Source: Chrysomallon squamiferum (taxonomy: Eukaryota > Animalia > Mollusca). From it: DNA of 64,000 nucleotides. Below the pieces are notes generated by a model. The model saw only the letters and a list, made by a program, of their open reading frames with translations, was not told the origin of the DNA and did not search any database. Position numbers and translations under genes: made by a program. This document shows, one piece after another, positions 19,386 to 54,117 of this stretch (within the stretch, counting starts at the first letter, position 1; each line of letters opens with the position of its first letter). Where the stretch lies: NCBI GenBank assembly GCA_012295275.1, contig CM022665.1, forward strand, positions 6,572,001 to 6,636,000, written 5' to 3'.

Positions 19386-19436
<51 letters not shown>

Positions 19437-25142: not shown

Positions 25143-25894
25143 CTATTTTTGTGATGCTAAGTTTTGAACAGTAGCAGCAGAGTCAGACTGTGTCATTTGA
25201 TATTCTTGAAACCTCTGAGAGATTCTTTGAGTCATTTTTAAGTATTTTTCCAAACAGTTTAAGGCACAGGTGTTCTGAAACAAAAATAATGTTTTATAAG
25301 TTATAAATAATTCACAATAAAGTACTTTAAATGTTTTATAAGTTATAAATAATTCACAATAAAGTACTTTAAATGTTTTATCATATATCATAGACTAATG
25401 AATTTAATTACATAGATAAATAATGCACTTGACTGCTTTCTTAAAAATTCCAGGAAATTTACAACAGTAAGATTATAAAATATTTTTTTATAAATCATAT
25501 TTAGATTACTTCTTTTATCCCAAAATAAGACTGTAATATGAAGTAAACATTGTGAAAGAAATAATACAAACCTCTGAATCTAATATTTTTCTTGTTGTGA
25601 AATCATTGACACAATCCATAAAGCACATTTCTGATACTCTGTTGTATGAAGCTAGAAACTCTTGAAACTGGAAAAAATAAAGAGAAGACTTATATGATAC
25701 AGAAAAGAAAAATTAGTGTGGTCATTTTATAACAAAATTTTACAAAACAATTTCTGGTTCCAGATTACATGTTTATATATTGTTAGTATATTTATAATAA
25801 AAATAAAATGAGATATTAATTTAATTTGTTTTACTTGTTTTACTGTACTTTCTGGATCCAATTGAAAAGGTTGTGGTACTGATGCTGATGACAT
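25143..25894 (-). CDS. TIMM9: Mitochondrial import inner membrane translocase subunit Tim9, 95 aa, 3 coding exons
   Basis: Exons 25894-25835, 25667-25572, 25274-25143. Protein: MSSASVPQPFQLDPESTVKQ|FQEFLASYNRVSEMCFMDCVNDFTTRKILDSE|NTCALNCLEKYLKMTQRISQRFQEYQ... with twin CX3C motifs (CFMDC, CALNC) and the Tim9-typical KYLKMTQRIS.RFQEY. A likely 5'UTR exon ends at 26784 (donor GTGAGT) and splices to the acceptor before 25917. Confidence 0.95.
25288..25381. repeat. 42-bp perfect tandem duplication (about 2.2 copies) in a TIMM9 intron
   Basis: Unit aatgttttataagttataaataattcacaataaagtacttta at 25288-25329 and 25330-25371, plus a partial third copy. Confidence 0.9.
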
Positions 25895-27100: not shown

Positions 27101-27617
27101 AACTTGGACTGATTCTGACATACACAGTTATTAAAAATATTTAAAGTAAAATATATGAACTTGTTATTATTTTATTGTATCTATTTTATCTTTCCGATGT
27201 GTATTAAAGAGCAGTATGCATTGGCTAAGTGTCATCTCCAGTATTAATTTACTAATTGGGCTTAGGCTACTTAATTTTTTAATCGCACTTGTGAGAAAGT
27301 ACAAACGACTGACTGGCAGAAGTAATGGAAGAAATAAAAATATATAAATATCAATATATTGTCTATAACCAAATGAAGTCATTGGTTAAGCCGAAATTTT
27401 AGGAAATTATTTGAAATTTGAAATAATGTGTAAATTATCTAGTAGTTATGTCTTTTATGTCAAGTGTTAATTCATTTTAGAATTATTTTAACTAGTCATA
27501 TTTTTTCATTGGTAATTAAGCAGACATATTATTTGCATTAATAACATATTAATTAAATACCAAATAACTTTTTTTGTTTTTTCTTCTATTTTCAGCTTTC
27601 TTGTAAGTCCTGGAAAA

Positions 27618-30600: not shown

Positions 30601-31375
30601 ATCCAGATTTGCAAATGAAAACTGTTTGAAACATAACATAATTTCATTTGTTTTGAGTATGTTTATTTATTGATTGAAAATATTTAAGACCTTTTTTTTC
30701 CATTCTAGTACTCATTATTATTTACATTTTCATATTCATTTTTGTAAACCATTTCTCATTATTGTAGTCCCATATTCTTATGATGTCATCCAAAACAACA
30801 ACACCACAAGTTTCTAAAGGACATTCAGCAAGTCCACCTTCCAAGAATTCTGGCAGTACTCCCCAAAAAGCAATCAGCATAACTAGAATGCAGCAGCCAT
30901 CACCTTTCATTGGTAAAGATGTCAGTTACCACAGTCAGTTATCAAAATATCAGTCAGAAGCAGATGAGCTGAGAGCTCATGATACCCCAGCACCAAGATC
31001 TCGACCACCAAAACCTGCAATTTATGAGTCACAGCCTCAAAAAAGTAAATACCATCACTTTGATTGGTTTTACAAGTATTTTGTTTTGTATATATTTATT
31101 TATTTAATACATTTATAGTTTGTTTAACTTTCCACTTCCACACCTTTTAGAAATGAAAAGATCATAACTTTGAAGTACTAAAATATTTTAGACTATGTTT
31201 TTTTTTATACAAAGGCAAGTTTGAAAAATGATATATCTGAAATACATTTCTCTTTAGATCGAGGGCTTTTAGAAGAGATTTTAGCTATTCAGGACTCTCC
31301 TGTTAACCAGTACAAGCCATCATCTGTAGCACCTCATTCACCACCAGTTAGACTGAGAGAAGATTCATATATAAG
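27618..31375 (+). CDS. KIAA0586: TALPID3/KIAA0586 centriolar ciliogenesis protein, 5' block of 7 coding exons
   Basis: Exons 27618-28905 (acceptor before 27596), 29037-29269, 29597-29736, 29959-30130, 30356-30553, 30768-31044, 31258-31375, phases consistent. VTAAVAATAAVAATQPFIK|AQCELESRM matches recalled TALPID3 [26 protein letters not shown], followed by a coiled coil, TPAPR and RGLLEEIL. A 14-nt upstream coding exon (27056-27069, MAAG-I) would also be in frame but has a weak donor. Confidence 0.85.
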
Positions 31376-33599
31376 GTTAGTCAATAAATAAGTTAAACCA
31401 GCATATCACTTTCTTACCATTCTCATATTTCTATCTTATAATTCTTGAGCTTGGAAGTTCAGTCATTAAAATGTGTTTAAGCAAATGAGGTATTCCATTA
31501 TATTCTTTGGTTAGGATTTCCTTTTTTATTTAAATGAGTGTACAGTGTTTTAATTTTGATGTAACTTACGATGATTTTGAAGATGTTTAACAGTAGTAAT
31601 TACCATACAAGATGATAGCAAACATGCAGTTCTTCAACATCAACACAAAAGCCTGTTATGTCATTGAAGATACAATAAATATATTCAGACTGAGTTAATA
31701 AATAAAATACCAGACTTTCTGCTATGAATTAATATGTTTATTTCCCTTATGAAATAAATGTTTAACATTCAGTGGTCATGGTTACACTTTCATTTGGTTT
31801 TTCATTTTAAATAATGTATTAAACAAAAATCAAAATATATAAAAAGATTATTCAAATAAAACAACATTGAATACGAGATGAATGATTTACCATGTTGTGC
31901 TGATAATCTAATTAACCAGAAATAATTGTTAATAAATTCTATAATATTAAACAAATATAAACAGTGACTAAGAAAGAAAAGAAAAAAAGAAAAACTTTGA
32001 TCATAATCAGTATCAGCATGAATTCATAGAGATTTGTTCCATTAATTACCAAAATCTCAAAAAAAAGTTGAATTAATGAAATGCCTTTCACACGATACAG
32101 AAATTCATTGCAGATATACCATATAGCTATAAATTTGTATATTTTTTAAAATTCTATTTCTGTATACAAAATATGTTATAATACAAGAAGAAGAGATACA
32201 TAGGAGTACAGTTACACCAATGTGCATAGACATAGAAATAGCCAGTTTGTATGTTTTCCACCATACATGATTTCAGCTGGCCAATTTACATTCCAAATTA
32301 TATATTAGTGTAAATGTTGCATATATTCAACATAAAATTTTAATAATTTTTGGTACATTCTTACAAGTTCCTGAATCAAGAGCAGTTGAAATTGAATAAG
32401 TGATTCTTAAGATGTATACATCTTTAAAAAAGTACGTTACATATTAAGGTTCTTTAGTGGACTTTATTTCAGATAACTTAGTATTGTTATGACTAATGGA
32501 AATTTACAACACAGATCAAATTGCAAAATTACTCATCCAGTACTCCTGACTGCATTTGACACAATAGCCAAGTTGGAGATTTGTGCATGACTAAAAATAT
32601 AAAACTGTATGACATTTTAAGAGTTTGCAATACATAACATAGTTGTCATTTGGAACAATGTGCTTATAGTGGTGTGTAGTTGAATAAATGAACAGGTTGA
32701 TCCATGTTATATTGTCTGCTGCTCAGAGGGTTAACTCATGCAATATTACTGTCTTAGGCTGACTGATTTTAAAGGAAGAGACTTGACAGTATTAGAAGAT
32801 TCAGATGAATTAAAACACCTTGTAATGCAATGTTGCATGGTCTTTAAAATAAAAATGTAGTTTTTAAACTTACATAAATCACTTGCCTTGAAGTTTACCC
32901 CTTCATTAATCAAACTGTTTTCTTAATGATTTGTTGAATGAATTCTGGGAAGTTTGTTATATTAACACATTTTAAGTATTAGTCACATTTGTTGTGTATG
33001 ATAATGTGAGAGAAATCAACTAGCAGCAAGTAATATTTTATATATACTTTCCCATAGACTGTAAATTACATATGACAGCTTTGAGTTGAACCATTCATAG
33101 GCAGTGACTGGAATGGGAAGTAATCCAGTCAGTGTGGTGCGTAGAATTAAACACATGACCTATCATGTGAAGGGCCAAGTTTTTAAGCACAGAGAAACCA
33201 CTCCTTACCAGCAAACAATCAGAAATGTGTCATCAAAAATTGGTCTTTTTCTGTTTTAAATCTATTAAATATTAGAAATATGATTTTTTTTTTTTCATTA
33301 TATGATACAGTATATCAATATATCATTTGTTTTCAGCACACTCCATAGATATTTCAAGTACCTGGTCATTAAACAATACTTTGCTACTAAACATTTATTA
33401 ATATTTGTTGATAATTTTTTAATATTCCAATTAGTAAAATTAAAAAAAAATTAAAATAAATACTAATAAATGTTCAGTAGCTTATACTACTAATTATAAT
33501 AATAATAAAATAAAATAATTAATAATAACATTTAAAATCCCATTTAAAAAGAAGGGGGAAAAAAGACAACTAAATGAACAGATATTGAATCTAATCTGA

Positions 33600-34928
33600 C
33601 TTCCGAGCAATTCAGAGAAAATTAATCAGGAAACACTATTACAGTTCAATCGTTGGCGTCCTAATTGTAGATGATTTACATATAGATCAGACAGGAGCAA
33701 TTTATGAAAACGCAAGTGTCCCTTATCAGACCTGAAATGCACGAACAATGGTGTATATTTCATTTATAGTTCGGGCTTCATGAATGCTTCACACGCAACA
33801 AATACGTCAATGCCATTTGCCGAGATGGGTTTAGTCACGCAACGTTCGTGTGGGACCCGCATCCATTTCAAACATGCTTCGATTTTTCATACACATAAAC
33901 ATAAAAACAATGTTCTAGTAAAACAGTAATTACATACTGCGCGTTTGTTGAAGTTAGAAGTGTATACAAAGCATGCCATAGCGCGAGATGATTCATGTTT
34001 AATATTAAAAGAATAAAAAATAAGTTTCAGACGTTATCATTCATTATGAGACGTTTGTTTTCCAACCCTAACTAGATTAAATAAATAAATAATCTTATTT
34101 CGTTAAAATGCGGAAATGACAAAAAAAAAAAAAAAAAAAATACGTTAATACTAAAATTAATGATTTTGAAATTCGGTTTTGATAATAGCTTTTGTGTATA
34201 ACGTAGATAGAATCCTTTTGTTAAAATTTGTATCTGTTAACGTTAATCTACCGTGAAACTAATCGAAAAATTGATTTAAAACTTCTCGATATAATAGAAA
34301 CGACACTAAAACAAAATTAAAACGTTTAAAGCACATTTTTAGCCAATCTTGTACGCGCATATGTAAATAATTGTCTCCTGCAGATTTTATTATTATTAAA
34401 ACAGAAAAAAATTAAAAGAAAATTACGAAAAGTAAATCAGTTATATCCGCCTATTCAGATATTCACCAGAAAACAAACACGTGCCGCCAGTAGATTTTTC
34501 ATGCTCAAGTTGCAGAGACTGGGACTAGCCTTTGATTGAAAATGTTGGCACAGCACGAACATGACGTGGCCCAGGGCGACTGGTGCGTGATTTCTTCTTA
34601 TTACAAAGCCCTTCGTTTGTGTCGCCAAATTACATTATAAAGTCGCACGAAACCTTGGTATATCAAAAAATCCTTCTCATATGACAACTCGGTAAATGAA
34701 AATAAAGGATGACAAAAAAGTAATCTCGTTGAGATTGTTAAAATGTGGCTTCGCACTGCTGGAGATATTATGCAATGAAATGTTAACATTGCATGTTATT
34801 CAAGATTATTAATTTGAATGGACTGGAAATGCAGAACATTACACGAACAAGCAGGATTCGCCTGACCTACCTTATTCTAAATAATAGTATTAACAAACTG
34901 AACGTTGCTCGATCACTTTAATTCTTTT

Positions 34929-34963
<35 letters not shown>

Positions 34964-36212
34964 TTACTCTTTTTTTCTTCTTTTTTTTTAATTACCCTCT
35001 CCCATTTCAAAGCTGTGCTGTAGAAATAGTGAAAAGAAAGGATTATTATTACTAACAGCTGAATGCATGGTTATCATTTTTATTTTATTTATTAAAAAAA
35101 AAAAAAAAAAAAAACAGTAAGAAAGAAGGAAAAGAAAAGAAATAAAATACATGGTCTCTGGTCTAAATAATCCCAAAACATATATACACGTATGAATGTT
35201 GATGTACTCGTCAGGCTGTGTGTTTAAAAGTGATGAGAACTGAGAAACAACTAATCGATTTTCTTTCAGAAAACGAAGACAAATAAATGTTCGTGCTCTG
35301 TTCCATACAATATTTTATTTCTGAGTCCTTAGGTAGTTTTATTGATGTCCTTCGTTCGTGCCATTCAGACCCCGGCGCCCGGTTAATTTCTCGCCAATCG
35401 GACGGTAAGTCACGAACACAACTTGGCGCAAAAACATGCAAATTACCGCAATTTAATGAGATGCGAACGGATAGCACACTGGCGGCACGCAAAGCTGTCA
35501 GAAGGCAGGCTCGTCGTCTTCTAGACGTCATTCTTTATAAATAAAAACGTCTGTTTATCAGGGCTGTTTAACCCAGGTACCTGCGTATTTTTAAGTTCGT
35601 CTCGGAGAAAATTCCAGCCTTGCAGGTAACGATCAACATTCACAATACACAAAACAGACTAGTTTAATAGCACCCTGGTCCACAACCATCAGCGTCGTCT
35701 GATCGTGACGAGGGAAAAAAAAATTGAAACAAAAGTATTCGCATAAAATGCAGTGTTCAGCATACACACACACACCCTTTCACCCCCATTTCCATAGTGA
35801 TTATCATCATTACCATCACTGTTACTAATTATTTCAGTAAAATAGTTTTTACTGAAATTCTAAATTCTCTCCCCTTTTTTCAGTCTTTAATAACTGTGAC
35901 ACTAATTTCATACTAGTTTTATTGTTGTTGTTTTTGTGCGTTTGTTTGTTAATGTTGTGATGAAATATTTCAAATTTATTAGAAAATATTAATTTTCCAA
36001 GAAAAGTTTCCTGTGGAACCAGATGTGAAACAAGCATAAAAGTATATATATGAAAAAGATATTATATTCGTATTCAGTTAACAGGCATATACAACATATT
36101 TTAAAAATTGTAATAATAATAAATAAAAACAACATATATTTTGAAGAACATACAATCCAAAAATATTTAGGTCTGTATTTTTTATTTATTTATGTAAACA
36201 TGTTGCAATATG

Positions 36213-36253
<41 letters not shown>

Positions 36254-37011
36254 ATATCAGTTGTTAGAACAATAAAATATTTAAAGCAATTTAAACGTCC
36301 AGGTTAAACCCTATTTTATATCTGGACACAAATGACAGCAGAAAAATCATATCATATTATTATCAATAAATTAGACATTACATACGTTTTTCTATTCAAG
36401 TTTAAAGCTGTTCAAAGTTCCACTATTCTATTAAACTATACAAAGCCGTTTGATAATCTACCCACTTTTAACTACGTGACTATACATATATGTTAAGGCT
36501 TTTATAAAATGTGATTTTGATGTAAACATAATTTTTAATGTTATATATGTGATATGTTTATACATCTGTTAAATTTTAATGAATATGCAACTAATACAAT
36601 ATTGAACGTAATGCAGGTACCACCGATAGTTAATTTTAGCATAATGGCAGTTGAATTTTCTATCGCGGGGTGGGGGGTCACTTCTGAGCTGAATATCGTA
36701 GCAGTTTCCTCAGGCCTGATACTGCTATCGAATTCCTCGATAATTTACCTCTCTGTTGTATATTGCGTGATCGAGAAAAAGCACACGTGAGTTAACCGTA
36801 GCTAGAGGGATTCGTTTACAATAATGTACGCATGCGTACTGGCGAATAGGTTTGGTCAGTATGATTTCAACTGGTTGGCGGTACAGTGTCAAATGTGATC
36901 GAGCGTAGGAAAGATGTGAGTCGAGTAAGTTACGATATCTGCTGTGTTGTGATCTGTAACTGATTTTTTTTTTTTTTTTTTTTAATTAATTGATACCAAC
37001 TAACACAACAG
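33600..37011 (+). promoter_or_regulatory. Intronic CpG-rich promoter/regulatory region of the nested IRF2BP gene
   Basis: CpG reappears abruptly inside an otherwise CpG-depleted gene body. E-box CACGTG at 36784-36789 and perfect 14-bp palindrome GTACGCATGCGTAC at 36826-36839 (NRF1-like), about 180 bp upstream of the ATG. Probable short 5'UTR intron 36925-37011. Confidence 0.6.
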
Positions 37012-37013
37012 AT

Positions 37014-38816
37014 ATGTCAGTGCCGCATAGGACTCAAAGACAGCACTGTTTTTTGTGCGATTTACCCCGGACTCCGTGGGCTATGTTACATGATTTCTCA
37101 GAATCAGTGTGCAGGGGGTGTGTCAATTATGAGGGACCAGACAGAATCGAAATGATAATCGAAACAGCACGACAGATGAAGCGTATACATGGATTTCAAG
37201 AACGAGCCGCGATAAAACCGTCACATGGTCATAGTCATGGGGGTAACGCACGTTCTGGTTCGCATGATTCACAAAACATGGATCCGCCCCGAGCTCATAA
37301 CGGACCCCCATCACTGGAAAGATTTTCTCTTCATGACGGTCAGCGGGGACCAAACGTAATAGATTACCCAAGATTTCCTAATGGATTACCGTTAGGACAC
37401 AGTATGCATCGACCAGATGATTTGTTGACAGATCTACAACGTAGTAGTCATCTTCCGCGTGGTATAGCAGGTCTGCATCCCATGCCTGCACCGTTAGCAC
37501 GCCAGGCACATCTTGTGGGCACAAGCTCTACGATCCATCCACCCATTATGAATGGTAAACGCACATATCACGAGGATGACGAAAGTTCTAATCATTCTTG
37601 TGGTGATGATGCCAGGAATAAACCAAGTTCACCTGAAGATGCAAGTGGAAGACCATTTCAGGTAAAAGATACTTTAAGTATACTGGCAACTATAGTTCCC
37701 TTTGAAATACGATTTAAAAAAGATATGTCATTGTGTGGACGTGTTTTTTCATTTGATGTCAGTACCAAACATCCTTCAGATTATGAATTAAAAATTTATA
37801 TTGAATACCCAAGAGGATCAGGAACAATCTATAATGGTGCTTCTGGTGTAGTAAAACAGATGTATTATGACTGTGTCAAAGATTGTGGTAAGGGACTATC
37901 ATCAGGATTTAAGTATCTGGAATATGAAATGAAGCACAGTGGTGGTGACTGGAGACTGTTAGGTGATATGCTCACAGAATCTGTCAGATTGTTTAAAGAA
38001 CCTGTAAATCGTGAACTGCTTCCCACTCCATATGTTGACAGTGGTTTGCCAACACTTCCAGGACCAAGCATACTTGCTAGAGGACCAACACCAAAGGGTT
38101 CAAATATGATTCTTTATTATGATGGACGAAAGAGAAAAAGTTCACCAGATGCTGATGTTGAAACTAGTGGGAAGATGACTGAAGAACAACAGAAGAGACA
38201 GCGATGGATACAGAATCACTCAGAAGCTCTGCAACTAACTGTGTCAACTGCATCAAGTGGTTCAGGTATGCCAAGTTCTACTTCAATGTCTCCACTGAGT
38301 AATAATGCATCAACACCACCTGAAATAGCACCAGGTCATGGTGGACCATCTCCACTGGTAGCAGGAAGGAATGTCACAGATAATCAGTGCTCACCAACAA
38401 ATGTAGAAGAAGGAAGCATTAAAAATGTTAGTGGAAGACATGACAGTGCTTCACCCAGCCATCTTCTACTGTTTCAAGGACGTTTTGCTTCCACACTTGG
38501 TCCTGTTTCTGATGCTGGTGTTGGAAGTACTATGCCTGAATCCACAGAAACTTTGCGATGTACTCTTTGTCATGAAAGACTAGAAGATACCCATTTTGTT
38601 CAGTGTCCATCTGTAAACAGCCATAAATTCTGTTTTCCTTGTTCCAAAGACAGCATTAAACGACAAGGTTCTGGTTCAGAAGTGTACTGTCCCAGTGGGA
38701 AGAAGTGTCCTCTGGCAGGATCTAATGTTCCTTGGGCATTTATGCAGGGTGAAATTGCTACAATTTTGGGAGATGACTTCAAAGAAAAAAAAATTAAAAA
38801 GGAAAGAGATGCTTAA
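37014..38816 (+). CDS. IRF2BPL: Interferon regulatory factor 2-binding protein family member (IRF2BP1/2/L; Drosophila Pits), 600 aa, uninterrupted CDS
   Basis: First ATG at 37014. N-terminal C4 zinc finger RQHCFLCDLPRTPWAMLHDFSESVCRGCVNYEG, central conserved domain (PFEIRFKKD...GFKYLEYEMKHSGGDWRLLG), RKRK NLS, C-terminal C3HC4 RING CTLCHERLEDTHFVQCPSVNSHKFCFPCS...VYCPSGKKCPL...PWAFMQGEIATIL, and terminal KIKKERD. Probably the single pro-ortholog of the three vertebrate genes. Confidence 0.97.
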   Translation: MSVPHRTQRQHCFLCDLPRTPWAMLHDFSESVCRGCVNYEGPDRIEMIIETARQMKRIHGFQERAAIKPSHGHSHGGNARSGSHDSQNMDPPRAHNGPPSLERFSLHDGQRGPNVIDYPRFPNGLPLGHSMHRPDDLLTDLQRSSHLPRGIAGLHPMPAPLARQAHLVGTSSTIHPPIMNGKRTYHEDDESSNHSCGDDARNKPSSPEDASGRPFQVKDTLSILATIVPFEIRFKKDMSLCGRVFSFDVSTKHPSDYELKIYIEYPRGSGTIYNGASGVVKQMYYDCVKDCGKGLSSGFKYLEYEMKHSGGDWRLLGDMLTESVRLFKEPVNRELLPTPYVDSGLPTLPGPSILARGPTPKGSNMILYYDGRKRKSSPDADVETSGKMTEEQQKRQRWIQNHSEALQLTVSTASSGSGMPSSTSMSPLSNNASTPPEIAPGHGGPSPLVAGRNVTDNQCSPTNVEEGSIKNVSGRHDSASPSHLLLFQGRFASTLGPVSDAGVGSTMPESTETLRCTLCHERLEDTHFVQCPSVNSHKFCFPCSKDSIKRQGSGSEVYCPSGKKCPLAGSNVPWAFMQGEIATILGDDFKEKKIKKERDA

Positions 38817-40358
38817 CTTAAAAAAAAAAATATATATATATATATAGAAGATGGACATATCTTGAAATAAGTTTTTGACTTTGTTGACATATTTGGCATT
38901 TTTATTTTTTTCCATTGACTTGGAAAAATTTTATTTGTATAAATCATCTTTCATTGTGAAAGTTTTTTAATTTTTGTTGAGTCAGTTATCGGATGTGAGA
39001 CATATTTCATGTACAACTGTAATGCCCTGAGTGAACCTTAGTATCTAGAAAAAAACAACAACTTTATTTTTGTCACTCTGTTATTTTGTGAATGACATGT
39101 CAAGCAGGAAAAGCACTGCTTGAACTAGGCACATGAAAATCCTTTGAAAGTGAAAATCAACAGACAACACGTTCTGTACATGTCCACAGTCAGTGGTTTG
39201 AGAGATTTTGTTGTTACATTGTTTGTTTGACCTCTGACAGGGAAAGGTAAATAATGTAAATTATTTAAACCAGCACTGGACTAAATGTCAGCTTTAAAAA
39301 AAAAAAAATTGTTTTATTTTATGATCATTCATTATTTAATTACATTGAATAATCCAGATGGCATACTTATAAAATAAATGACAACCATCTGAATTGTGCT
39401 CAGCATTGTGACTCACAACATGTATCAAAACATAAGCATTTCAACATTAAATGAGTTAAACATTATCTGGTAGTTTAATAAAGAATTGTGAGTTAAGGAA
39501 AGGGCATTCTGAGTTTATTAAGGACAATTGTTTTTTTGTTTTGTTTTTTTCAAGTTGATAATGGTACAAAAAACATCTCACCTTTCAAATTTCTAGTATA
39601 GCTTTTATCATAAATGCTACAATTTTTCCATCAGCACAGAGTAATGGAAGAAAACTTGGGGTTCGTAAAAGTGAAATGTGAAATCTCATTTGAAAATTCT
39701 GATTTGCTTTATGGTAGTAAAAGAACCATTATAAAAGTATAATATGTACCTGAAAAGAGAGGATTCTCCAATACAAATGCCAGTGTGTGCAGTTTAAAAA
39801 TATAACAATGTTTATATCCTGTACAAATGTCATGTTTCTTTATAATATTTAAACAAAATTAACTTTTATTTTTTGTTTTTACTTTGTGGAATTTAAGACT
39901 TGGCAATATAAAATGTAGGTAATCAAGTCTGTAGTGTATTATTCTCCATTACTCTACACTGAAATTTGTTGTGTAACATTTTATGGTAAGGGAGCTTATC
40001 TATTTGAAAAACAGTTATGAAAAAGAAGTCTACCAGTTAATTGTTAATAGTGATTTTTATTTTTGTTTATTCATTAAAACATACACTTCATTGTAGATAC
40101 CCTTGTAATTTGTCAGTCTGATTCCCTTTATGATGACAGAGATTAAGATGTAGTTGCTAAGTATTCAACTTGTGAATTGAAAGCATGAAAGTGTTATTTG
40201 AAGATTTTTTTTTTATATTAAAAAAAAAAATTCAAATTCACTGTTCTACAAATTTTTTAAAAATAATAAATTAAAAACTTATTGTGATTGGTCTTGTACT
40301 TGGTGAATTTACTAAAGAGAGTAGTATATTTCAACTGTTACATTTTAATTATCAATAG

Positions 40359-40408
<50 letters not shown>

Positions 40409-41913
40409 TACACACATATTTATTTTATTTATATATTTATTTATTTATTGAAGAGACAAACAAAATGATTTGAACAAAGTATGTAATTTTGCCACAGTTT
40501 TAAATATTTTTGATGTTAAATGTGTTTACTGGGTGAATAACTGGCATACACAAGTACATTTCAAAACATTTAAAAACAAATAAATAAATAAATTAGAAAA
40601 ATGTTAAAATGTTTGATTTTTATTGTGTAATTGATCAAACTTTATTTTTTAATGTTTTTTAATTGATCATTTCACTGATAGATTTCTGTTTCTACTGTTT
40701 TTGAAAATGAATAAATGTGTACAATGTACATGTCTGTATAGATTCATACTCTTTTGTCTTCATTTAGTGGAGATGTGACTTTTGTATGGTACTATTTTCT
40801 GATTTAAAACAATATTTTTTTTAATCTTATTATTTATTTTTTATCTAGTATTTTGATATGGTAATAAAAGTAATGTCTCTTTCAACTATTAAAAAAAAAT
40901 GTTTGGTTCTAAATTTTTATTTGTGATCTCTGATACATTGTTGAACAATATTACTAGATTTAGTTATGGAACTTTTATGTCACAAGTTATTGGAAATACT
41001 AATGATATAATGATGACTAGTAATCACTAAGTCATTGTCTACTCATTAATTAAACATGTTTGTTGGTATTTTGTTCAAATACTTAATGTTTTATACATAG
41101 TTTTTCTAAATTTCATGGTTGGTTTGTAATGATGCATAAAACATGCTACCTGTGCATAATTTGCCTTCACTGACAGGAGCTTTTTCAAACAAGTTATACC
41201 TAAATATTACTGTAATGTTGACATATTTTTTTATTACATACAAAATACATAGCTGTTAATTTTGGTAAATGATCTTTATAATACACTCCTTATAATGCCT
41301 GTTAACATTTGTCACAGTTATTTTATTTATATATATATATAAAATCAGATATATGTACACACATACATACATATATGTTCAGGACTTTTAATGAAAAGTA
41401 GATTTGAAATATGGTTTATCCATAGAGAATAGTTAATAATTAAAAAAAACACACAAAAAAAAACACCACAACAAATACTACAAATATACAACAAATATGC
41501 ATTAAGAACTGGCTCTGTGAGTGTCAGTTCAATTTGTTGACCATGGATGCTACTAAAGAAAACTAAATTGAACTTCTTTTTTCTCCCATAAAAATTAAGA
41601 ATATCTGAACAGTTATACAGAAGTTTCACTTAATACCTCCACAAACGAAATGAGTATGATTTTGTTTTCATTACTTATTTTTAGACTAACAATATAGGAT
41701 TAGTTTAATATGATTTTCTGTCACAGTACTTCATGCATCATGAGGGAATATTAAAATACATTGAAAGAGAAAAAGGAATATAATTATAATGTTAATGCAT
41801 GAAATGTTCTTGCTTCAAGCTAATTCAGTGTTATTTTTAAAAAACAAAATGGCTTCTTCATAGTTAAAAAACAGAAACAAATTGTGCTTATTGATTGTTC
41901 TTCTTCTTTACTT

Positions 41914-41954
<41 letters not shown>

Positions 41955-42517
41955 GATAAACTGCCTTTATATTTTGTTTAATTTATTATTCTCTTTTAAG
42001 GAGCAACAAACAGTCTTGTTACTTTTCCATTTTTATGGTGTTTGAAATGTGCATCTATAATTTTGCTTACTTGTCAAATAACAGTGAAATATATATTTGA
42101 AAAAAACAAATGTTTTTGTTTTTTTATTTCTTACTTACATGTCATTTTCATGTTTTAGTAGTTTTCTTTCAGTTGATTATTTTTAAAACAGACCTGATGC
42201 TTTATATGTCAAGTTCAAACACTGATATGATATTTGTAAGTAAATAGTTCAAGTGAGTTTAAAGAATATTTTGATAACTTTTGAATTATCATTCCAGCAA
42301 TTTTTATTATGATGAATGTTTTTTTCTAGTTGCATGAATGTATTTAGTTGATTTGCATAAAGAGTTTATTTGGGGTATTGTGAGAAAAAACATTTTATTT
42401 TCATCCAAATGAAGAGAAATTTTATATAGCTGCATTACATGATATTTTCTCATTTAGTTTATAATTAATATTCTCCACCTACTGTTCATTGATTTCTTTT
42501 TTTTTTTTTTTTTTTTA

Positions 42518-42520
<3 letters not shown>

Positions 42521-42572
<52 letters not shown>
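42521..42572. repeat. (CT)n microsatellite
   Basis: Read directly. Confidence 0.95.
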
Positions 42573-42575
<3 letters not shown>

Positions 42576-45500
42576 AAGAAATAAAAAGAATTAATCAATT
42601 TCAGTGTCTGCTTTGGAGTTTTGTTAAGTCTTTCAGCAGAGGATGTGTCGTGACTGGTTGTGATCTGCATTAATTATCAGCAGAGGTTCCTTAAATGTAG
42701 TGCCATGATCACTTGATAAATAACTTTGATGCAAAGTATGCATGAGATGAGGCCATAAATTGCCACAGCATAAAGTCGGTCTTGAGCTCAATCCCCTAAT
42801 GTCATTGCTTGCGTGACAGAGCTTTTTCAAATTCACGCACATCTCAGAGACAGAAGCAATTAGTGACAACCATGTAATTAACAACACTAGACTTGTTATT
42901 GCTATGAAACACAGGTATCTGGGCAGCAGTGTCTGATTTATTTCCATATTCTGACATGGATAGATTAAAATGTGCCGATTTGTTGGTTGAAAGTTTGCTT
43001 TTTGCCCACAATGAATCCATTATCAATAAAGGAGTTCGAATGTGATCTAAATATTAATTACAGCGCTGGTATAGGATATGATTGTCATAAATTTTATCTC
43101 TTAGAAACCAGAACATTTTATCATAAAGCTGGTTAAATCATGTAAAATAATTATATTAACCACTGCTATGGTAGAGAACTGGATTCATTCACATTGTCTT
43201 GATGTGTGTAACAAAAAATACAGTCTGAATTATGTATTCTGATTAAGAAATAAACTAAAAATTAAAAATGATTTATTTATAAAAGTGAAATATATACAAC
43301 TAAAATAAATAAATAACCAAAGTTAATCTTAAAGTGATCAGAATCATAAAGAATAAATAGACAATACAAATAAATTAATATTGAATTACTTGTAATGTTA
43401 GTTTACGTACAAATAAGTTCAATTTATTTGTGGTTTCTATGAAAAATAGAAAACTACTGTTGCTAAATTAAATTATTTGTTATTGTCAGAGAAAAAAAAA
43501 ATTAAACTAAAAATAAAAGAAATGCAAATCCAGAGGATCTTGAAAAAATCTGGCTGCAGGATCAAAATAAGCTAGTTTTTAATCAGACCTTTTTCATTTC
43601 TGACTTTTGTCAGTGATTTGTAAAATTTCATAAGATTTGCATTTTGAAGCCAATGAACTGCTGAACACATTGAATTAAAGGATACAATAAACAGAATGCA
43701 GGCCACCTGTGTCAAAATTCATGAGTCATCAGCAGATGTAGGCCTCCCTCTATACATTACATTGAATTCAGTGGTAACTTTTCAAACAACTAATGGAATT
43801 TGGGCCAAAGAAATCATGAGTTCATCTGCATAATAATTATCTTAAAAAATATTTTTTTTAAAGGGAATGACATTTAAAAAAAAAAAAAAAAAAAAAAAAA
43901 TACTAAGAAATAAATAAATAATGGACCGTGTACTATGAAAAGAAAATCATTAACAGATTAAACATAGTTCACTAATAATAACAAATAATTTTTTTTTTAC
44001 AGTAAGCAGTCATTTTAATTAACAATAATTTTTTTTTTGTTGCAAATGTGACTTAGAATCCAGAAAGTTAATGAAAATTTGATGTAATTCTTCAGAACAT
44101 AAACACATGGTTGTGTTTCCTAGCAGTTTATTCAATAATTTCGTGATATGAAAATTTATCAGTCCTCAAGTCCAGTGCAAACAACGTAAATTGTATCACT
44201 CAGTGCTGTTGATAGTGTCAAGGATTGGTGAGGAATCTTTCTTGTTGAACAGTTACCTGTCACACCCATTGTCTTCCTGTACAGTTAAGAAAACTAGAAA
44301 ATAACAAAAAATAAATCTGTAAATTTTGTCAGTTGCTAGAACAGAAATAATAAATCTTTTGGATTAATTATAATACAATTTAGATGTGTTTTGTGTGTGT
44401 GTGTGTGTGTTTTTATTTCCTGTACATCTAGCTGATTTGTTTGTAATATGTGATGATGTGTAGGTATGTCATTAACATGCCTGTCACATTGTACTTTGTT
44501 TCCTATGTGTCATTTCAGAAAATGTCAGAGGCTATGTCAAAACAACTAAAACTTCATCCAATTAAAATAACACAGTAAAAAGACAGATGTGTGAATGGGA
44601 ATAAAACAGTGTGTAAATACAGAATGTAAACAATAGCGCTGTGGTCATACATGCAGCATGTGTAAAATAATTGTGTATTATATATACTTGATAACAGTTA
44701 TGTTTCAGATGCATTGTTTGGTCTACCTATGTAAAAGAACCTTTGTGTTTAACAATAGGTTTCTTTTTTTTTTTCTCCACAATGAATTCATGGTAATCCA
44801 GAAAACCTCAGCATTTTTGTTATATCTGAATATGTATTAGGGGTAACTTTTGAATGTGAAAAACAGGGTATTTTTGGGGGGAGGGAGGTGGGCTTTGTTG
44901 GTGTAGGAACATATGAGAATGAAATAACAAGTAAACCAAACAACAGCTTATGTCAAACTGATGGTAAACAGTGGGATTTTTAAAACCAATGTTTTGTTGT
45001 ACATTTTGATAACTTTTTGTTATCAGCTTTCTTTACTGAATGTTTAACTGCACCTCAGCACAAACAGTATAAGCTGTTGGGTGTCACGTACTGACTGATA
45101 GGTACCTAATAATGATGTAAAAATAAAAAAGTTTAATTGCAACATTGCAGACAGATGTGCAAATATAAATATATAAAATAGGTCAAATCAACTATTTTAA
45201 AAGTGCTAATCACGGATTGCATTTATTTTCATTCCAACAATATTTTAGTGTATACAAAAACTGCAAATAAGGAGCAGTTTGATCAAAGCAAATTATAAAA
45301 CAAATTTAAGACATGAAAATTCATAACTTCACTGGTGCTGTTGCAGAATGAATTTCTCATCTAAAGTAAATTTATCTGTATGCCATTTTGAATGTATTTT
45401 CTGTTTCTTCTGGTACAATAGTGTTGTGGACCAAACAGCAGTTATTTTGCATTCCTGTCATGAAGTGCTGTGCCATCTTACACAGAAAAATGTGAAATTT

Positions 45501-47498
45501 GATCTTACAGCAGTATCTGGTCGTTCAGTTGCCTGAGAAATTTATCGTGAAGTGCATGCCAAATGACATTCAAGCAGGATTAACTGTCTCGGGTGTTAAT
45601 CTCCATGGCTGGCATGAGTATGAAGAAAATGCTCCCATCCATTCCAAATACACATTAAATTGATTTTACCAGTAGTCACTTTAAAAATCTGGGAAAAAAA
45701 TGAAAATGTGCAAAGAATAACAAGTAGGTAATAGATTGGTTAGTCCTTATTTATTTATGTGAAATATTCATGAATCTGAGTTTTGAAAAAATAAAATGAG
45801 GGAATGTTTCCATTTTACTTTATAGGAAATATATATTTTGTAACAACAGATTATATTACAGATTAAAAATAAATATGGTCATAAAGTTAGTTAACCAGGA
45901 AGCTATTTAACTGAAGATTCAGAAATCTGTTTATCAGTTTCTGCTAGTAACAGGGTGTGCCTGTTAACAACAGTAAAACTGTTACTGCAAAGAAAGTTAC
46001 AAAAAGAGCTAACAGTTTTTTCATCTAATAATAATTATTCTGAATTTGTTTTGCATCAAAGTCCTATTGAACATTCTTGCCTGTGAAAATATGAATTTAT
46101 TCAATATTATTTTCAAATCCCTTTCTAATTATTACAGAAAAAGAAAACATTTTTTTGTTCTTTGAAATATTTGTTTTTATATATATTTACCACCTACAAA
46201 TTAAACTTTCTGCACAACAGACATGGATCTAGTCCTAATACATCTTGTTTATTTCCTAGCATTTGGTTTGTTTTCTAAGTCACTAGTGTTTGCTAATTAG
46301 AAAATAACAAGCCCATGAAGATAAGTGAAGGAAGATATTTTCCATTTTGTTGTCTTGTTATTGTCTGATAGATTTAGGTATGTGCCTATGCAATTATTTA
46401 TTCAGTCTGGGTGAAATCATCAGTTTTAAAAAAAAAAAAAAAAAAAAAAAAGGATCCATTCATATTTATTGTTAAAAAGGTTGTTAGAAACAGATAAATA
46501 CCTGCTGAAATGGTAAGGGTTGATTAAGGTACATAACTGAATTGTATTTTAATCTTTAATAAAATACTGAACATACTAATAAATTTACCAGTGTGCTTTT
46601 GTAAAGAAATAACTTTTGAAAAATTAATTAACCATAACAACAAAGAAAAATAGTAATAATAAACACTATATAAAAAGCTTTAAAATAAAAAAAATTTAAA
46701 TCCATTTACATTCATCTCTAATTCTTTTATGTAATTACAGTTAACCTGCAGAGGGGGGAAAAAGAAGACACCATTTTTTTTTTGTTCATGTTCAATTTCA
46801 CGCACAGAATTGAACTCTTTACACTGACAGATTCTGTCTCCTTGGGTCTCCACAATTTCCTTTTCCACACTCCTTCTGTGTCACATGCATGACTGTACAT
46901 ATTCATCTGAAAACCAGAGCCAACATTTATATTCAAAAAATAAAACATACCGTCAATTCAAGAGGCTGTAAAGAAAGAAAAATTGTTGGTCCACCATAGC
47001 TACTTGAATAACAATGATATTTGAAAATAGATCTTATGAGATGATGGTATAATTTGCATGATCTGACATATTATAAATCATGCTGTTTTTAAGCAGCCTG
47101 TGACAGTGAATTGCTTATTAGGGCTGGAGTGATTATTGCCAAATATTGACCCATACTGATATTGGTATTCTAGTCAGACCCTTGCCACACTTGTGGGAGA
47201 TATTTGACTGTGTCCTTAACACGGCATTGACAAGGCAAAACCTTGTGCTTGGTGATGCTTTAAAATGTCTGGTGGATAGGATTACCAGAGAAATCTGCTG
47301 TTCACAGAACATCACATATTAGGATCTGTATCTGTCTGATATAAATGTATCAGTCATGATTATGCTGAATGATAGTGCACTGATTTGTTTAATATTTTAT
47401 ATCTGAGATTTCTTATGTTTTGTCACATTTGAACTGCTGTCATGTAATTCTATAACTAATAATTGAATTTATGAAGTTTTATGTACATTCATACAGTG

Positions 47499-47529
<31 letters not shown>

Positions 47530-48367
47530 TATGTACATACATATAAACACAAAATTTTGTGGATAGGATTTTGTAACAAAACTGGAAGAAGAGTAGATTA
47601 AATTATAGTAAATAAGATTTTGTTTCTTTTAAACAAAATTTTAAAAATAATGTTTTGCAATAAACAGGTGCAGATACCCCATTTAGCAATTTATTAAACT
47701 TTTGAGGGCCTTTTTTTATTTCACAATAGAAATGAATAAAATGTTGCTGTGACAGTGCATAAAATTAGAAACAATCCTACTGAGAACTTCTTTTTTCTTT
47801 TATAAATGAATGAATGATAATAGCAGTAACAACAACAACAAGAATTAATAATTGTTTATGCTTTTCATACTCTCACATCAGTCAATAAATACAAATCTTT
47901 GCCTAACAGTAACACGGTAAGAAAGAGAGAGTATTAATGTTTTACTGTACGGTGTTTGAACTAATGCAGTTCACACACACAGACAGTTGTTATGTGATGT
48001 TGGTGTTGTGTAAAAATGGCTACTTTGAAGCAATGTATTCCAGTCAGCGTAAAGCATGACATGAAAGGCCAGCTGTGTTACACTAATGAGCATGAGCATA
48101 CAAGGCTGTGTTTTGAATACCAATGAAGATGGCCAAACTGAACAGATTGGCCTTAATACCATTGTTTTTGTGTGACCTGTTAAGAATTGCTGGTAAATAA
48201 CGAGAGAAATTAATTGCTTGTAGATTGTGATAGGAATATATTTAGAAGATAATGAGGCCTATATTGGACAAGTTTCTGCTGGAAATAGAAGTAGATTGAG
48301 TTTCAAGTTGTATCTAGTGTAACAGTAATCACTATGAAAATGGTATGGGAGTAGCAGTTACTGATCA

Positions 48368-48520
48368 GAATTTATACTAGAATCTTGCTAATTTAAATGG
48401 AATTTGTACAAGATTTTTGATAATTTAATTGGAATTAATACAAGAATCTTCCTAATTTAATTGGAATTTATACTAGAATCATGCTAATTTTAACAGAATA
48501 TTGTTAATTTAAATTAAATT
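48368..48520. repeat. Degenerate 32-bp minisatellite, about 4.5 copies
   Basis: Units gaatttatactagaatcttgctaatttaaatg / gaatttgtacaagatttttgataatttaattg / gaattaatacaagaatcttcctaatttaattg / gaatttatactagaatcatgctaattttaaca. Confidence 0.85.
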
Positions 48521-49528
48521 TAATAAAATGCCTGAAGTAAGAGTTTTATCATGTTTTCTTGTTTGTTTTGGACAGCATCCCAATTTTTTGATAGATGAAT
48601 ATGTTTTATTTATTTTATATATTTATAGTTTATTAACCAGAATCAATTTGGGAAATATAATAAATTAACTGGATGAAGATCCTGTTGACTGAGAAAATTA
48701 ATTATCTTTTTTATTTTTTTAACTTTTTTTTTTAATTCTTTATTAATTTTGTTTATTATTTAAAAAAAAAAATGTATTATTATTTTATTTTTTTTCCTCC
48801 TGGATCTACAGGATAGATAATGAAAACTTGCTGTTGTTCTTCTTTTTACACAATCACACTCTGAACTGAAAAACCTCATTAAACAAACCGCTGAGATGTC
48901 ATTAAACAAATATTACTTTCCTTTCTGGTCACATACCAGTACGTGTGTATTGTGTTTGTAATAAAACATCTGTCCTTGCACTGTAGCTTCATGGCTGAAT
49001 TCAATCTTGGAAACCAGAATAGCATTAGAATTTTAACTTTTCGTTTTTGCTAACCAAATTCAAAGCTTAATTTTATTATTAAAATAACATATTATATTCA
49101 TTCATTTATTTTATTATTTTCTTAAATCCATTTAGCTTCAGACTAAACAGATTTTATCATCATTTTTATAAAGAAGTATATTATAGTTTATGTATTCTAT
49201 ATTAAATCTGGAGCTTTATTTGAGAAAGAGTTAGGAATATTGATATATCCAACATTCCGCAGTTCCTTATGCCATTTATGTCTTTATTGTTACATATTAA
49301 AACTAAAAAAACAAAGTCAGATACTCTGCAGAAATTTTTAAAAGAGACCAGTTTATATGCAGATGTTGTTAATTAATCTTTTAACTATCATTTAATTACA
49401 GACTGTCCTACAAAAATGATGATAGCAGCATATCAAAATACTATTAAATTATTATGTCTTCCTTTTTTCTGCTAATATGTATCTATTGGTATGTTAGAAT
49501 GTTATTCTAGAAGAGTCTTTGCTTACTT

Positions 49529-49560
<32 letters not shown>

Positions 49561-51092
49561 CATTCTTTTCTTTCTTTCTGTCTTCATGAAAGTGCAAGAA
49601 GACTTGTCATGTTAACATTTCCTTCAAGCTATAAGCCATCACCAACCATGTCTGATTTAAATCGATTAACATCACCAGGTGTCTCTAGTGTCTGCAGTTC
49701 TTTATTCTGTTAGCATTAAATATCATTTCTTTGACCATCATTGATCTTGTGCCTTCTTCTTTTTTTTTTTTTATTTTTTTTTTTTTTTTTTTGTGGTGGG
49801 AGGTTTTTAAAAGTGTTCAAAGTACCTGTATTGTTCCAGTTAATTGGGTCGAATTTGTTTTAAATTAAAGTTTTGAAATAAAAAATATTTGTTAAGGAAT
49901 ACGATAGATGGCATTATGTGATGACTGTGTATTCTCAAATTACATTCTTCATCTAAAAAACAGATCTGAAGAAAACTTTGAAAAAACAACTTTCATGTTT
50001 CCACAAACATATAAAAGTATTGAATAAATACATTTATTTTTTGGTTTTCATACTTATATCAGATAAAGTAATTAAATAAAATAAAAAAAAAAATAAGACC
50101 AAATAGAAATTCTTACCAGTTTTATATAGATAGATAAATGGAATGATAGACAAATATACAGATGAGACAATGACTGTAACTGGAAATATTTTAACATTTT
50201 CCCAACATATATCTTTTATCAGTAATCAGATATCCTTCACGTATTATGTTAAAGATGCTAAACATTTTCATTTGAAATATTTCTGTTTCTCTCCCCTGCA
50301 GTTATATAGGTATTAGTGTAAATAATTCAATTTATTTGGTTATACAAATAAACACTGACCAAAAACAGATATATATTTGCATTTCTCCTATTTGATTTTG
50401 GTATTTGTTTAAATAAATTAAAATATTTGGTTTGTCTACAGTAGTTACATTCTTTATGTTACATTTATGTAAACCAGTGATAGTGTCTGGAATCATGGTG
50501 CTTTGAGCTAGACGCAAATTGTTTGACATTTGCAGATTGATTAAGCTAACTGTAACTACCATCATTGCCCAAGATACCCTGTGAATGGAATCTAAAATTC
50601 CAATTACACTTTAACCAAAGTAATGCCACACTTGGAACATCTTAGCCTTAGGGTAGTAATAGAAAGACACATCGTCCAAGTTCAACAGAACCTGACAGTC
50701 TATTGCTATTCTTAACCATGTTTATTAAATATGTCATCAGGTGATTTCATTTCTTAACATTGGTGTGTTGTTGTTTTTTTTTTTTTTTTTTAAATAAAAT
50801 TAATTTTTAAAAATTTAAAAATAATATCAGATTACTTGTAGGTTCACTATAACTTCTTTGTGAAATAGAAATGTTAATGTTGATCTCGATGTTGTTTTCA
50901 GTGGGAATTTTTTTGTTTTATTTTTGTTTTTTTTTTTTTTCTTTTATTTTGTTATACCCCTTCAGTGACATAAAGAAAAAACTATTCTTGTAATAATAAA
51001 AAAATAGCACCAGTGTTGCTAGGCAAAACAGTCCTACTTATATCCATGTTTGATTTATGTTGATCACATTATATATCCAAAAAGTTATTATT

Positions 51093-51126
<34 letters not shown>

Positions 51127-53327
51127 GTATTCTTTCTTTTTTTTTTTTTTTTTTTTTAAACTAAGCTTTCTTTTAAAATCTAATTTATTTATCTAATAAA
51201 ATTAATTTAAACAGTTTAGTAAATTGCAAACAACTTTTGTGCATTCTGTATGTGACTGAGTATAGCAGATCTATATCTGCAGCTGTCAGTTTGTACTCAG
51301 TAATGATGTTTACATTTGTCGTAACATCTGATTATTGAACACGCTGATATTGTCATGATCATCATGATCGCATAACCCACAGCTTGTGTGAGAATAATCC
51401 ACTGTTAATTATTGAAGGAGACAGCTGCTGGACTGAGCTCAGTAATACACACGTATCACAGATTTACACAAACTTAAGTCATCGTCTTAGTTTGACTATG
51501 TCACAAGGTTACAAGTACAAATGTGTCAGAAAACTTCTTCTCGTAATATGATTTTCTTTTTTCATTCATCGTTAGAAAAACAGTATAAATAATTATAAAT
51601 AATATCAGTGATAATTGAGGTAAGATTAGGTAACACTTAAAATTTGGAAGAGTTAAGTCATATCCAGATAATTATGAATTTGATAGAAAAAAATTAAAAA
51701 TTATAAAAGTATTGAGAAACTAAAAAAACAACAAATAAACAAAAAAGAAAACCAAACAACAACTGTTAATAAATAAAAAACCCTAGACCCACCCAAAAAA
51801 AAAAAAAAAAAACGGGGGGAAAAATATATTATTTTTATATTTAGATCATCAGGTATACAGTTTTTTATCTCTTAATTTTTTATTTTTTATTTTTTATTTT
51901 TATTTTTAAATTATTGTTATTTTTATTTTGCAATGTATTAGTGTTAAAATTGATAACTGTTAATATTTATTAACATCAGAAGACATGGTTTGCATTACTT
52001 GTATCTTACTACCAATATATTACATATCACAAGTTATAACATTTCTGAAATAAAAATGTTCTTTATATTCAGATTTAATGCACAGTTCGTGTGAATGGTG
52101 CATGACAAATACTGAAATAGTCTTCTTTGTTTTCCAGATTTTATAGAAAAATAAAATAGTGGGTTTTTTTTGTATTTTGGAATAGATTTAATGGCAACTA
52201 ACATGCAACAGGCAAATTACTTGCATGACAATACGTAGTTGAAGTCTTTAAATGTTTGCATTATGCATACAGTAAAGGGTTATTAGATGGGCTGTGATGA
52301 TGTACAAACTTCACATTATCAAAATTAAGTAGAGGTGAATGTTTCTTACTAAGGTTAGATTTGATGTTAGATAAAACAGCTAGCTATACTGAGAAGCATA
52401 GAAAATATTTTTGAACAAAAGAAAGAAACCCCCTGTTCTATTTCAGGTAGAATGTAGATAAAATTGTCTTTTATATAAGAGCACATTGTAGCAGTATTAT
52501 ATAAGAATTGCCTGTGACAGCTTCGTACAAACTCTATGCTCTTGATAGATGAATTTGGAAGTTACCAGTTTCCTTATGTATTTGATATTACAAATAAATA
52601 ATGTAAAAGGTTCACTGGTATAATAGATCAATGAAACTTTTACATTATTTTGTTTATTTTAATTATAGTGTCTTCAGAGACAATTTTACAATAACCTAAA
52701 AAAAGTAATAATAACTTTATAATTATTATATTGTTACAGTTTTCTTTCCAACACCTCTTCAGTTAAGTAAATTATTGTTGAGTGCAAAAAAAAAGAAAAA
52801 GAAAAAAGATACCTGGAAAATTACCATGGCATATTTTGCAGTTTTTATATTATTATATTAATATGTTTACACTTCGGAAATATTTTATGGGGGCGGGGGG
52901 GAAATGTTTGTATAATAATTCCAAAACATTACTATTAAGAAATTAAAACTGCCATAACTTATCACCAGAGAATACTGAAAGAATCCTGATATTTTTTATA
53001 AAACAAAGAAGAAAAACAGGAGGCAAATAATTTGAACATAATTTGAAAATCAATTAAAATTATTGTTATGTAAACAAGATTAGAAATTGTTAAGAACTGG
53101 TCACCTAACACCTAACAAGAAATGCTCTACATAGACACAACATGTGAGAAAAAATATCTCTTTTTCTTTTAGCCAATTAAATTTTACACCAGTAAATTTA
53201 AAATGTCTGTACATTAGGTGACTGGCATCCTTCTAAGTAAAATCCGTGCCTATGTTGTTGTTGGATGGGTTTCTTTATGTGGGAGTTTTATTTGGTTACA
53301 AGTGAACATTTAAATTTTTTGTTTCAG

Positions 53328-54085
53328 AAGTCAGCGTGATGTGAGTCCTGTCCAACAAGCTAAACGACTGGAAGAAGAGTTGTCATCCATTAACCAGCAG
53401 ATGAATGAACTTGTCACTGTGGTTTGTATTCAGCTTGTAGCATTTATTTTATTTACAAACTCTGGCATTATGTCAGTCTTAATGTAACTATATTAATTTG
53501 ATTCTTGATTCCTGTGAAATACTCATATCCTTATTTAAAAATTATTTTAGAAACTTAACAATATTCAGTATAAAAAGTTTCAGTCAAGACATAACAGAGC
53601 TGAATTGAAATAAGTATATTTGGCACTAAGACTTAGTGAACAAAATTATCAGATTTAAAAAAAAAGCATCTACTCATTTGTGGTTTTTAATTTATTTTTA
53701 AAAAGCCAGTATTTCAATATTTCAAGACAATATTTGCAGAGTTGTGACCCTTTAACACCAGGACAATTAAACAAAAAACATTTCTGAATATGGACTTATT
53801 TATACACCTGCTGTCCATTAATGAATTATTAATACAATACAGTGATAATTACTTAATCTCTGAATAACAAGACAATAATAGGTGTACCTGTGTATTTTAG
53901 TTAATGTTAAATATTTTCCATTATTTTTAGACACCAGAGAAAATGAGAACAAGCAAATCAATATTGAAAGAGGTAACATTTTTATTTCACTGTATAAATA
54001 TTCCTTTAAACTGACTTTTTCATATTAATTTTAATTTTTATTATTATTATAGGTTTGTTTTATTTTATTTTTTATTCTTTTCTTT

Positions 54086-54117
<32 letters not shown>

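Follow-up and report, generated by a model that had tools for sequence, protein, structure and literature searches.

An intronless IRF2BP gene nested on the same strand in a long TALPID3 intron of Chrysomallon squamiferum: a nesting that probably dates back to the last ancestor shared by corals and bilaterians

Conservation of nested gene pairs is generally low. In the well-described case of great age, Synapsin-TIMP, the guest is antisense to its host; in that pair an unrelated gene lies in a host intron at a position conserved from Nematostella to bilaterians (PMC2825198). Here we analyze a window of 64,000 nucleotides (nt) from the mollusc Chrysomallon squamiferum (GenBank assembly GCA_012295275.1, contig CM022665.1, positions 6,572,001 to 6,636,000 of the forward strand), in which intron 7 of TALPID3 houses a complete single-exon IRF2BP gene in the same orientation as its host, and the TALPID3 transcript is spliced across it. 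As in Synapsin-TIMP, the guest is unrelated to its host and its position appears to be conserved. Unlike TIMP, a multi-exon gene that runs opposite to its host (PMC2825198), IRF2BP is a same-strand, intronless gene, and the host transcript carries the whole guest mRNA and its 3' end. Synapsin-TIMP persists in human, whereas TALPID3 and IRF2BP were separated in tetrapods (PMC2825198, PMC4236578). What is new at this locus is the orientation: it is likely an ancient nested pair whose guest and host share one strand. A same-strand pair so old would be well suited to studying how transcription of a host gets past an internal promoter and a functional 3' end over hundreds of millions of years.

Imprinted host/nested pairs are similar in having an intronless guest, a CpG-rich promoter of its own, and a possible effect on the end of the host RNA (PMC11694760). 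TALPID3-IRF2BP differs from them in that it looks ancient, and its effect on host ends is putative. The loci of Wood 2008 and Cowley 2012 (H13/Mcts2 and Herc3/Nap1l5) are said to be young mammalian retrogenes under imprinting. IRF2BP is a cofactor and is not known to be a DNA-binding developmental factor. In genomic regulatory blocks (e.g. Isl-Scaper and Otx-Ehbp1), as here, a transcriptional regulator is linked to an unrelated gene whose intron is exceptionally long, and a single host goes with several regulator copies after vertebrate duplication; there the regulator lies beside the host with its enhancers in the neighbor's intron, whereas here IRF2BP itself lies inside and the enhancers are putative (PMC3514665, PMC7530604). 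The gar locus timm9-talpid3-irf2bpl-dact1 includes the same three genes that we find in the window; the available text gives vertebrate adjacency alone and is silent on nesting (PMC4236578). In the literature searched (titles and abstract openings, with few subscription journals), no report of IRF2BP nested in TALPID3 was found; the list of 795 conserved groups in PMC3514665 may contain the two genes as neighbors. The available supplements of PMC7530604 contain IRF2BP solely as an ohnolog family and gave no match to KIAA0586 or TIMM9, and 12 of the 14 supplementary files of PMC4236578 gave no match. An earlier annotation of the window (the first-pass annotation, made from the sequence) had stated that most nested genes are antisense to their hosts, a premise weakened by a mammalian survey showing only a slight bias to opposite orientation and common same-strand nesting (PMC11694760).

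The TALPID3 exon blocks on the two sides of IRF2BP (Table 1) belong to one gene, because RNA contigs splice across IRF2BP. Of eleven runs listed, two were RNA (X6 and X7); these two come from one study, and their contigs carry neither strand nor RNA ends. In both, contigs entering at 53326 are preceded by letters equal to window positions 31344-31373, and the 31375^53328 junction has exactly the offset expected from the summed exon lengths, namely 2418 for X6 (contig of 4,834 nt) and 438 for X7 (contig of 812 nt). Seven further TALPID3 splice joints (53421-58272) were found, each in both runs. According to these contigs, the two host exons that flank the whole of IRF2BP are joined by splicing. 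The TALPID3 model spans 27618 to 62031 in 21 coding exons, which encode 1504 aa free of stops when 56699 and 57644 are read as X, and all of its 20 introns are GT-AG. Among the introns modeled up to the window end, the phase-2 host intron is 10.5 times as long as the next-longest (21,952 vs 2,092 nt). The first-pass annotation had proposed a complete IRF2BP gene nested on the same strand, an in-frame phase-2 junction at 31375^53328, an intron about ten times longer than the others, and full-length TALPID3 pre-mRNA that must read through the IRF2BP promoter and 3' end; the gene models and RNA splices, with the junction found in both runs compared, bear all of this out, and the read-through follows from the splice.

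As for the identity of the host, PF15324 (TALPID3 in Pfam) matches the exons at 57862 and 61146 above its cut-off and exon 5 below it (E 4e-4). A blastp comparison with Aplysia gave E 1e-142 over residues 434-1456, and tblastn with two full-length TALPID3 homologs gave matches in both exon blocks, i.e., similarity to named TALPID3 proteins is colinear on both sides of the intron. Exon-like frames continue beyond 62031 up to about 63.6 kb, and the gene extends past the window end. At its other end, RNA contigs reach 38-83 nt upstream of 27596, and TALPID3 therefore has one more exon on its 5' side, probably close to 27.0 kb. Relative to both RNA runs, the window is two letters shorter at 56699 and one letter longer at 57644, which breaks the TALPID3 frame; these are likely assembly errors and not signs of a pseudogene.

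The guest has all three domains of the IRF2BP family (PF11261, PF25457 and PF25454) above the Pfam cut-offs. It shares 71% identity with an unnamed protein and 62% over the full length with Haliotis rufescens IRF2BPL, and groups among molluscs in a quick tree. By family names, the protein is predicted to have corepressor or E3 ligase activity. X6 cover over the coding sequence (CDS) is far above the intron background, which, together with the CpG-rich domain described below, would fit a transcript of its own (the contigs show neither its strand nor its start). In X7 the CDS has no RNA cover, which is uninformative because the coverage tool partly drops conserved sequence. We note donor-like and acceptor-like sites at 36926-37011, just 5' of the IRF2BP ATG, where the X6 contig looks unspliced; a splice from TALPID3 exon 7 to the acceptor-like site at 37011/37012 would leave IRF2BP out of frame. 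In Haliotis rubra, the last 15 residues of IRF2BPL isoform X2 (P0212) differ, which suggests splicing from within the IRF2BP CDS to an exon located further downstream.

Table 1. Features of the window and of one coral contig (L029) that carries IRF2BP; UTR, untranslated region; o/e, observed/expected CpG ratio.
Sequence	Feature	Position	Strand	Details
Window	TALPID3 5' block, coding exons 1-7	27596..31375	+	ATG 27618; open frame, GT-AG sites, RNA contig offsets
Window	TALPID3 exons 1-7, each	27596-28905, 29106-29269, 29597-29736, 29959-30130, 30356-30553, 30768-31044, 31258-31375
Window	IRF2BP-hosting intron	31376..53327	+	phase-2 GT-AG, 21,952 nt
Window	CpG-undepleted domain	33500..37700		o/e 1.16
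Window	IRF2BP CDS, single exon, 600 aa	37014..38816	+	one open reading frame, ATG 37014 to stop 38816; RNA contig 36998-38771 (X6)
Window	IRF2BP protein domains	8-59, 203-340, 514-585		zinc finger, middle domain, C3HC4 RING
Window	IRF2BP 3' UTR (likely)	38817..41906	+	about 3.1 kb or more; X6 and X7 RNA contigs
Window	TALPID3 3' block, coding exons 8-21 (modeled)	53328..62031	+
Window	TIMM9-like gene, three coding exons	25143..25894	-	head-to-head with TALPID3; two exons above Pfam Tim10/DDP cut-off
L029	TALPID3 5' exons	155-443, 607-864, 1655-1742	+	1655-1742 phase 1 to 2
L029	IRF2BP, intronless	7484-9283	+	within 10,841-nt gap
L029	Exon-8 homolog (likely)	12584-12677	+	94 nt, phase 2 to 0, like window exon 8
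L029	Next exon	13263-13310	+

The CpG o/e is 1.16 over 33500-37700, vs 0.16-0.20 in the gene-body sequence that borders it on both sides. Invertebrate genomes have mosaic methylation. Because the CpG o/e fits this pattern, we infer that 33500-37700 is an unmethylated promoter/control region of IRF2BP, about 4 kb long, within a methylated gene body. The CpG-rich promoter named in the first-pass annotation thus holds for the CpG enrichment, in a wider domain than had been given, and the promoter itself remains a candidate. A CpG-rich block at 33500-35900, 1-3.5 kb before the IRF2BP start, has no protein match and could represent enhancers, an upstream start or the promoter of a non-coding RNA.

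Downstream of the CDS, X6 contigs lie at 38856-40349 (depth 23.1) and 40866-41906 (depth 30.7), after a depth of 48.7 for the one at 36998-38771, and X7 has a contig at 40913-41906 (depth 10.6), while the other listed intron pieces have depths of 2.6-8; none of the pieces listed bridges 40350-40865. As RNA cover runs to 41906, the 3' end of IRF2BP is more likely near 42 kb. The AATAAA near 40710, which had been given as a candidate poly(A) signal, is present in the sequence and was dropped as evidence for the end: it is one of 76 sense copies in the intron, and RNA cover beyond it, at 40866-41906, matches the depth of the 3' UTR. It is probably not the main end of IRF2BP. The sense copies amount to 3.5 per kb (89 copies are antisense, the 2-kb intron has 3.4 per kb, and 24 copies fall in the first 5.4 kb of the host intron). 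Where RNA cover falls, at 41751-42579, there is neither AATAAA nor ATTAAA.

To see how widely the pair is linked, we surveyed accessions in ten species with both genes named. The two genes are on scaffolds of the same length in eight (Ptychodera, Glandiceps, Saccoglossus, Littorina, Haliotis rubra, Mactra and two Biomphalaria species), and in six of these eight the TALPID3 and IRF2BP accessions are within 6 of each other (those of Saccoglossus come from different releases). In Biomphalaria, the TALPID3 model is split around IRF2BP: on one contig of B. pfeifferi, KAK0046545 is the 5' half (619 aa), ...549 is IRF2BP and ...551 is the 3' half, and in B. glabrata KAI8741069, ...070 and ...074 are the 5' half, IRF2BP and the 3' half (order read from accession numbers; the accessions in between are unassigned). 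In the full-length protein of 1898 aa, the boundary between the halves falls at residue 619/620, at most 5 residues from the window junction, in a poorly conserved stretch. From this order, the same TALPID3 intron almost certainly hosts IRF2BP in Biomphalaria. A full HMMER search for TALPID3 gave 20 proteins, whereas one TALPID3 exon as the query had matched none of 121 candidates among longer proteins. Out of the 22 TALPID3 proteins compared, 10 are truncated at the N-terminus, starting at exon 8 (5), further down (4) or further up (1). The newer Saccoglossus model likewise starts at exon 8, on the scaffold of IRF2BP. Many invertebrate TALPID3 models are thus cut at the IRF2BP-hosting intron, and the gene looks split or short in databases.

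We also examined 76 metagenome loci containing IRF2BP, three of which (L029, L031 and L007) have more than 5.5 kb upstream of it. The first-pass annotation had looked to tblastn for nesting in other genomes; tblastn of 22 TALPID3 proteins against the 76 loci gave no match, and the signal came from accession order and from a search with hidden Markov models (HMMs), which found TALPID3 5' exons on the IRF2BP strand in L029 and L031 (best E 1e-8). Both are from stony corals: L029 encodes an IRF2BP with the same sequence as a named protein of Orbicella faveolata, and the IRF2BP of L031 falls in the same cluster. In L031, homologs of exons 4-7 lie upstream of IRF2BP on the same strand with the phases of the window, one window exon corresponding to two in the coral. 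In L029, five exons (Table 1) join to 259 codons without a stop, with phases 0-1, 1-1, 1-2, [10,841-nt intron with IRF2BP], 2-0, 0-0, vs 0-1, 1-2, [intron], 2-0, 0-0 in the window. In two contigs the coral 5' exons run no further than the exon-7 homolog, whose donor is phase 2, so that the rest of the coral TALPID3 must lie downstream. In an ungapped profile of 15 bilaterian proteins, the candidate exon 8 ranks first of 8,130 windows of L029 (z 4.5), and it is the best of 216 candidate exons (65 acceptors), scoring 13.2 vs 4.5 for the next distinct one. Of five homologs compared with the chain of exons 7-9, three align with it in order over the junction (E 0.001, 0.013 and 0.026). On these comparisons, the same intron very probably hosts IRF2BP in stony coral, on the same strand in both L029 and L031 as in the window, which places one host intron in distant phyla including a cnidarian, through one coral contig with a weak exon-8 match. 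Linkage of the two genes, which in genomic regulatory blocks spans at least four lineages, extends over gastropods, a bivalve, hemichordates and coral, mostly by accession order and scaffold length, and also gar (PMC4236578).

The nesting is thus likely older than the first-pass annotation supposed, and probably goes back to the last ancestor that corals and bilaterians share. Corals and bilaterians split more than 600 million years ago. The explanation that we favor, with fairly good confidence, is that the nesting dates from this ancestor and was kept by entanglement of the two genes together with control elements of IRF2BP in the intron. The guest may have arisen by retroposition of an intronless copy, which is a guess. 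IRF2BP would fire from its own unmethylated promoter and end near 42 kb, while polymerases from the TIMM9/TALPID3 promoter would pass it, ignoring its 3' end as they do the 24 AATAAA upstream, and the 22-kb intron would then be removed from the TALPID3 pre-mRNA. The pair would be inseparable without cutting TALPID3, and control elements likely fill the intron, leading to retention. The helix of exon 11, which is downstream of the intron, aligns across 15 of 15 TALPID3 proteins. We take it to be the coiled coil known as essential in TALPID3. A coiled coil of TALPID3 has been described as essential (PMC4641851). A break or premature end in the intron would be costly, because the exon 11 coil would be lost and the product would likely be dead. 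Putative enhancers of IRF2BP may lie in the host intron, for which the two corals give thin support: over the 2 kb preceding the IRF2BP ATG (part of which may be 5' UTR) they are 0.84-0.95 identical, vs 0.46-0.78 in intron sequence farther upstream. Genome duplication in vertebrates likely released the additional IRF2BP copies from their host; irf2bpl kept its place beside talpid3 and timm9 in gar and came apart from them in tetrapods.

Several observations weigh against this explanation. Entanglement is no full lock: of the human-mouse nested pairs with orthologs, no more than 25-31% are conserved (PMC11694760), and in tetrapods TALPID3 and IRF2BP came apart. Between the window intron and the 76 loci, no non-coding match was found except one low-complexity hit. 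In the accession survey, Candidula and Nucella have the two genes on different scaffolds (each with a partial TALPID3 model), the Glandiceps accessions are far apart, and for the hemichordates, Littorina, Haliotis and Mactra accession order gives neither strand nor nesting. In the coral, exon 8 ranks first of 225,644 windows across all loci by just 13.2 vs 12.6, it has no Pfam match, it was absent from the top 8 in a short HMM search of 10,727 pieces (with short HMMs for exons 7 and 8, the coral exons were not in the top 8), and the profile tests were designed after the exon had been picked by eye in genomic sequence alone. The third long locus, L007 (1-19202, annelid-like in the tree), shows no TALPID3 exon in the 10 kb before IRF2BP or the 7.4 kb after it; it may have a larger intron, or come from a lineage in which the nesting was lost.

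It is also conceivable, though unlikely, that the nesting has been kept for coupling, with IRF2BP transcription or its poly(A) site truncating TALPID3 RNA and thereby tuning ciliogenesis. Read-through is obligatory, same-strand orientation seems retained in coral and mollusc, a truncated TALPID3 would miss the conserved exon 11 coil, and the lack of AATAAA/ATTAAA at 41751-42579 suggests that the IRF2BP signal may be weak; moreover, at two imprinted mouse loci, expression of the nested gene accompanies premature polyadenylation of the host (PMC11694760). Against this, no truncated TALPID3 transcript was seen among the contigs (which cannot show RNA ends), the hexamer at 40710 is nothing special, and separation between gar and tetrapods indicates that the link is dispensable in vertebrates. 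Contig depth, a poor measure, gives a weak hint in the same direction, with 19.4 for the spliced X6 contig vs 2.6 for the piece entering the intron, and 6.8 for the X7 3' contig, which is not below its 5' contigs (4.0-10.4). Quite unlikely is the stronger form, in which the same-strand unit, with TIMM9 head-to-head with TALPID3, has been kept since the coral-bilaterian ancestor because IRF2BP transcription and its 3' end set the level of full-length TALPID3, tying cilia building to a transcriptional cofactor, and in which it may survive in gar, coelacanth and sharks and breaks invertebrate TALPID3 models.

We consider it very unlikely that only the TIMM9-TALPID3-IRF2BP neighborhood is ancient, the nesting being a mollusc or spiralian trait and the coral downstream exon a chance match beside a piece of TALPID3. 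The weak similarity of coral exon 8, the hemichordate full-length models with IRF2BP merely adjacent in numbering, and the lack of a TALPID3 exon near L007 would fit such a history. It leaves aside that the coral 5' exons stop at the exon-7 homolog in two contigs, that the best of the 216 candidates has the expected length and phases, that the exon 7-9 chain aligns over the junction, and that the Saccoglossus model starts at exon 8 on IRF2BP's scaffold.

That misjoins in the assembly placed IRF2BP into the intron is hardly credible, since two would be required and the same order is seen in independent Biomphalaria assemblies and the coral contig, even with two small length errors in the window and genomic DNA contigs that cover all 30 bins of 27.4-47.4 kb as 1-2 kb pieces, 47.4-53.1 kb being outside the comparison (genomic continuity across the intron is for these reasons unproven by reads).

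Head-to-head with TALPID3, the window contains a gene of the Tim10/DDP family (25143-25894) that we presume to be TIMM9, which fits the gar synteny. To our knowledge, human IRF2BP genes are outside KIAA0586. In gar, talpid3 and irf2bpl are found between dact1 and timm9, and in tilapia both adjoin dact1; at the same locus, Talpid3 is alone in tetrapods and Irf2bpl is alone in coelacanth and most teleosts (PMC4236578). The presence of the TIMM9-TALPID3-IRF2BP block in both mollusc and gar therefore links the mollusc to a ray-finned fish. This adds a three-gene block common to the two, and reports of fish without talpid3 at the locus may merit a second look.

Further upstream, a multi-exon gene at about 15000-23640 on the minus strand has a first exon that matches DUF4706. 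A human member of this family, C1orf198, is presumably on 1q42, as is IRF2BP2. Between this gene and the TIMM9-like gene, at about 23911-24221, there is a short element whose terminal inverted repeats are about 20 nt long and which resembles a miniature inverted-repeat transposable element.

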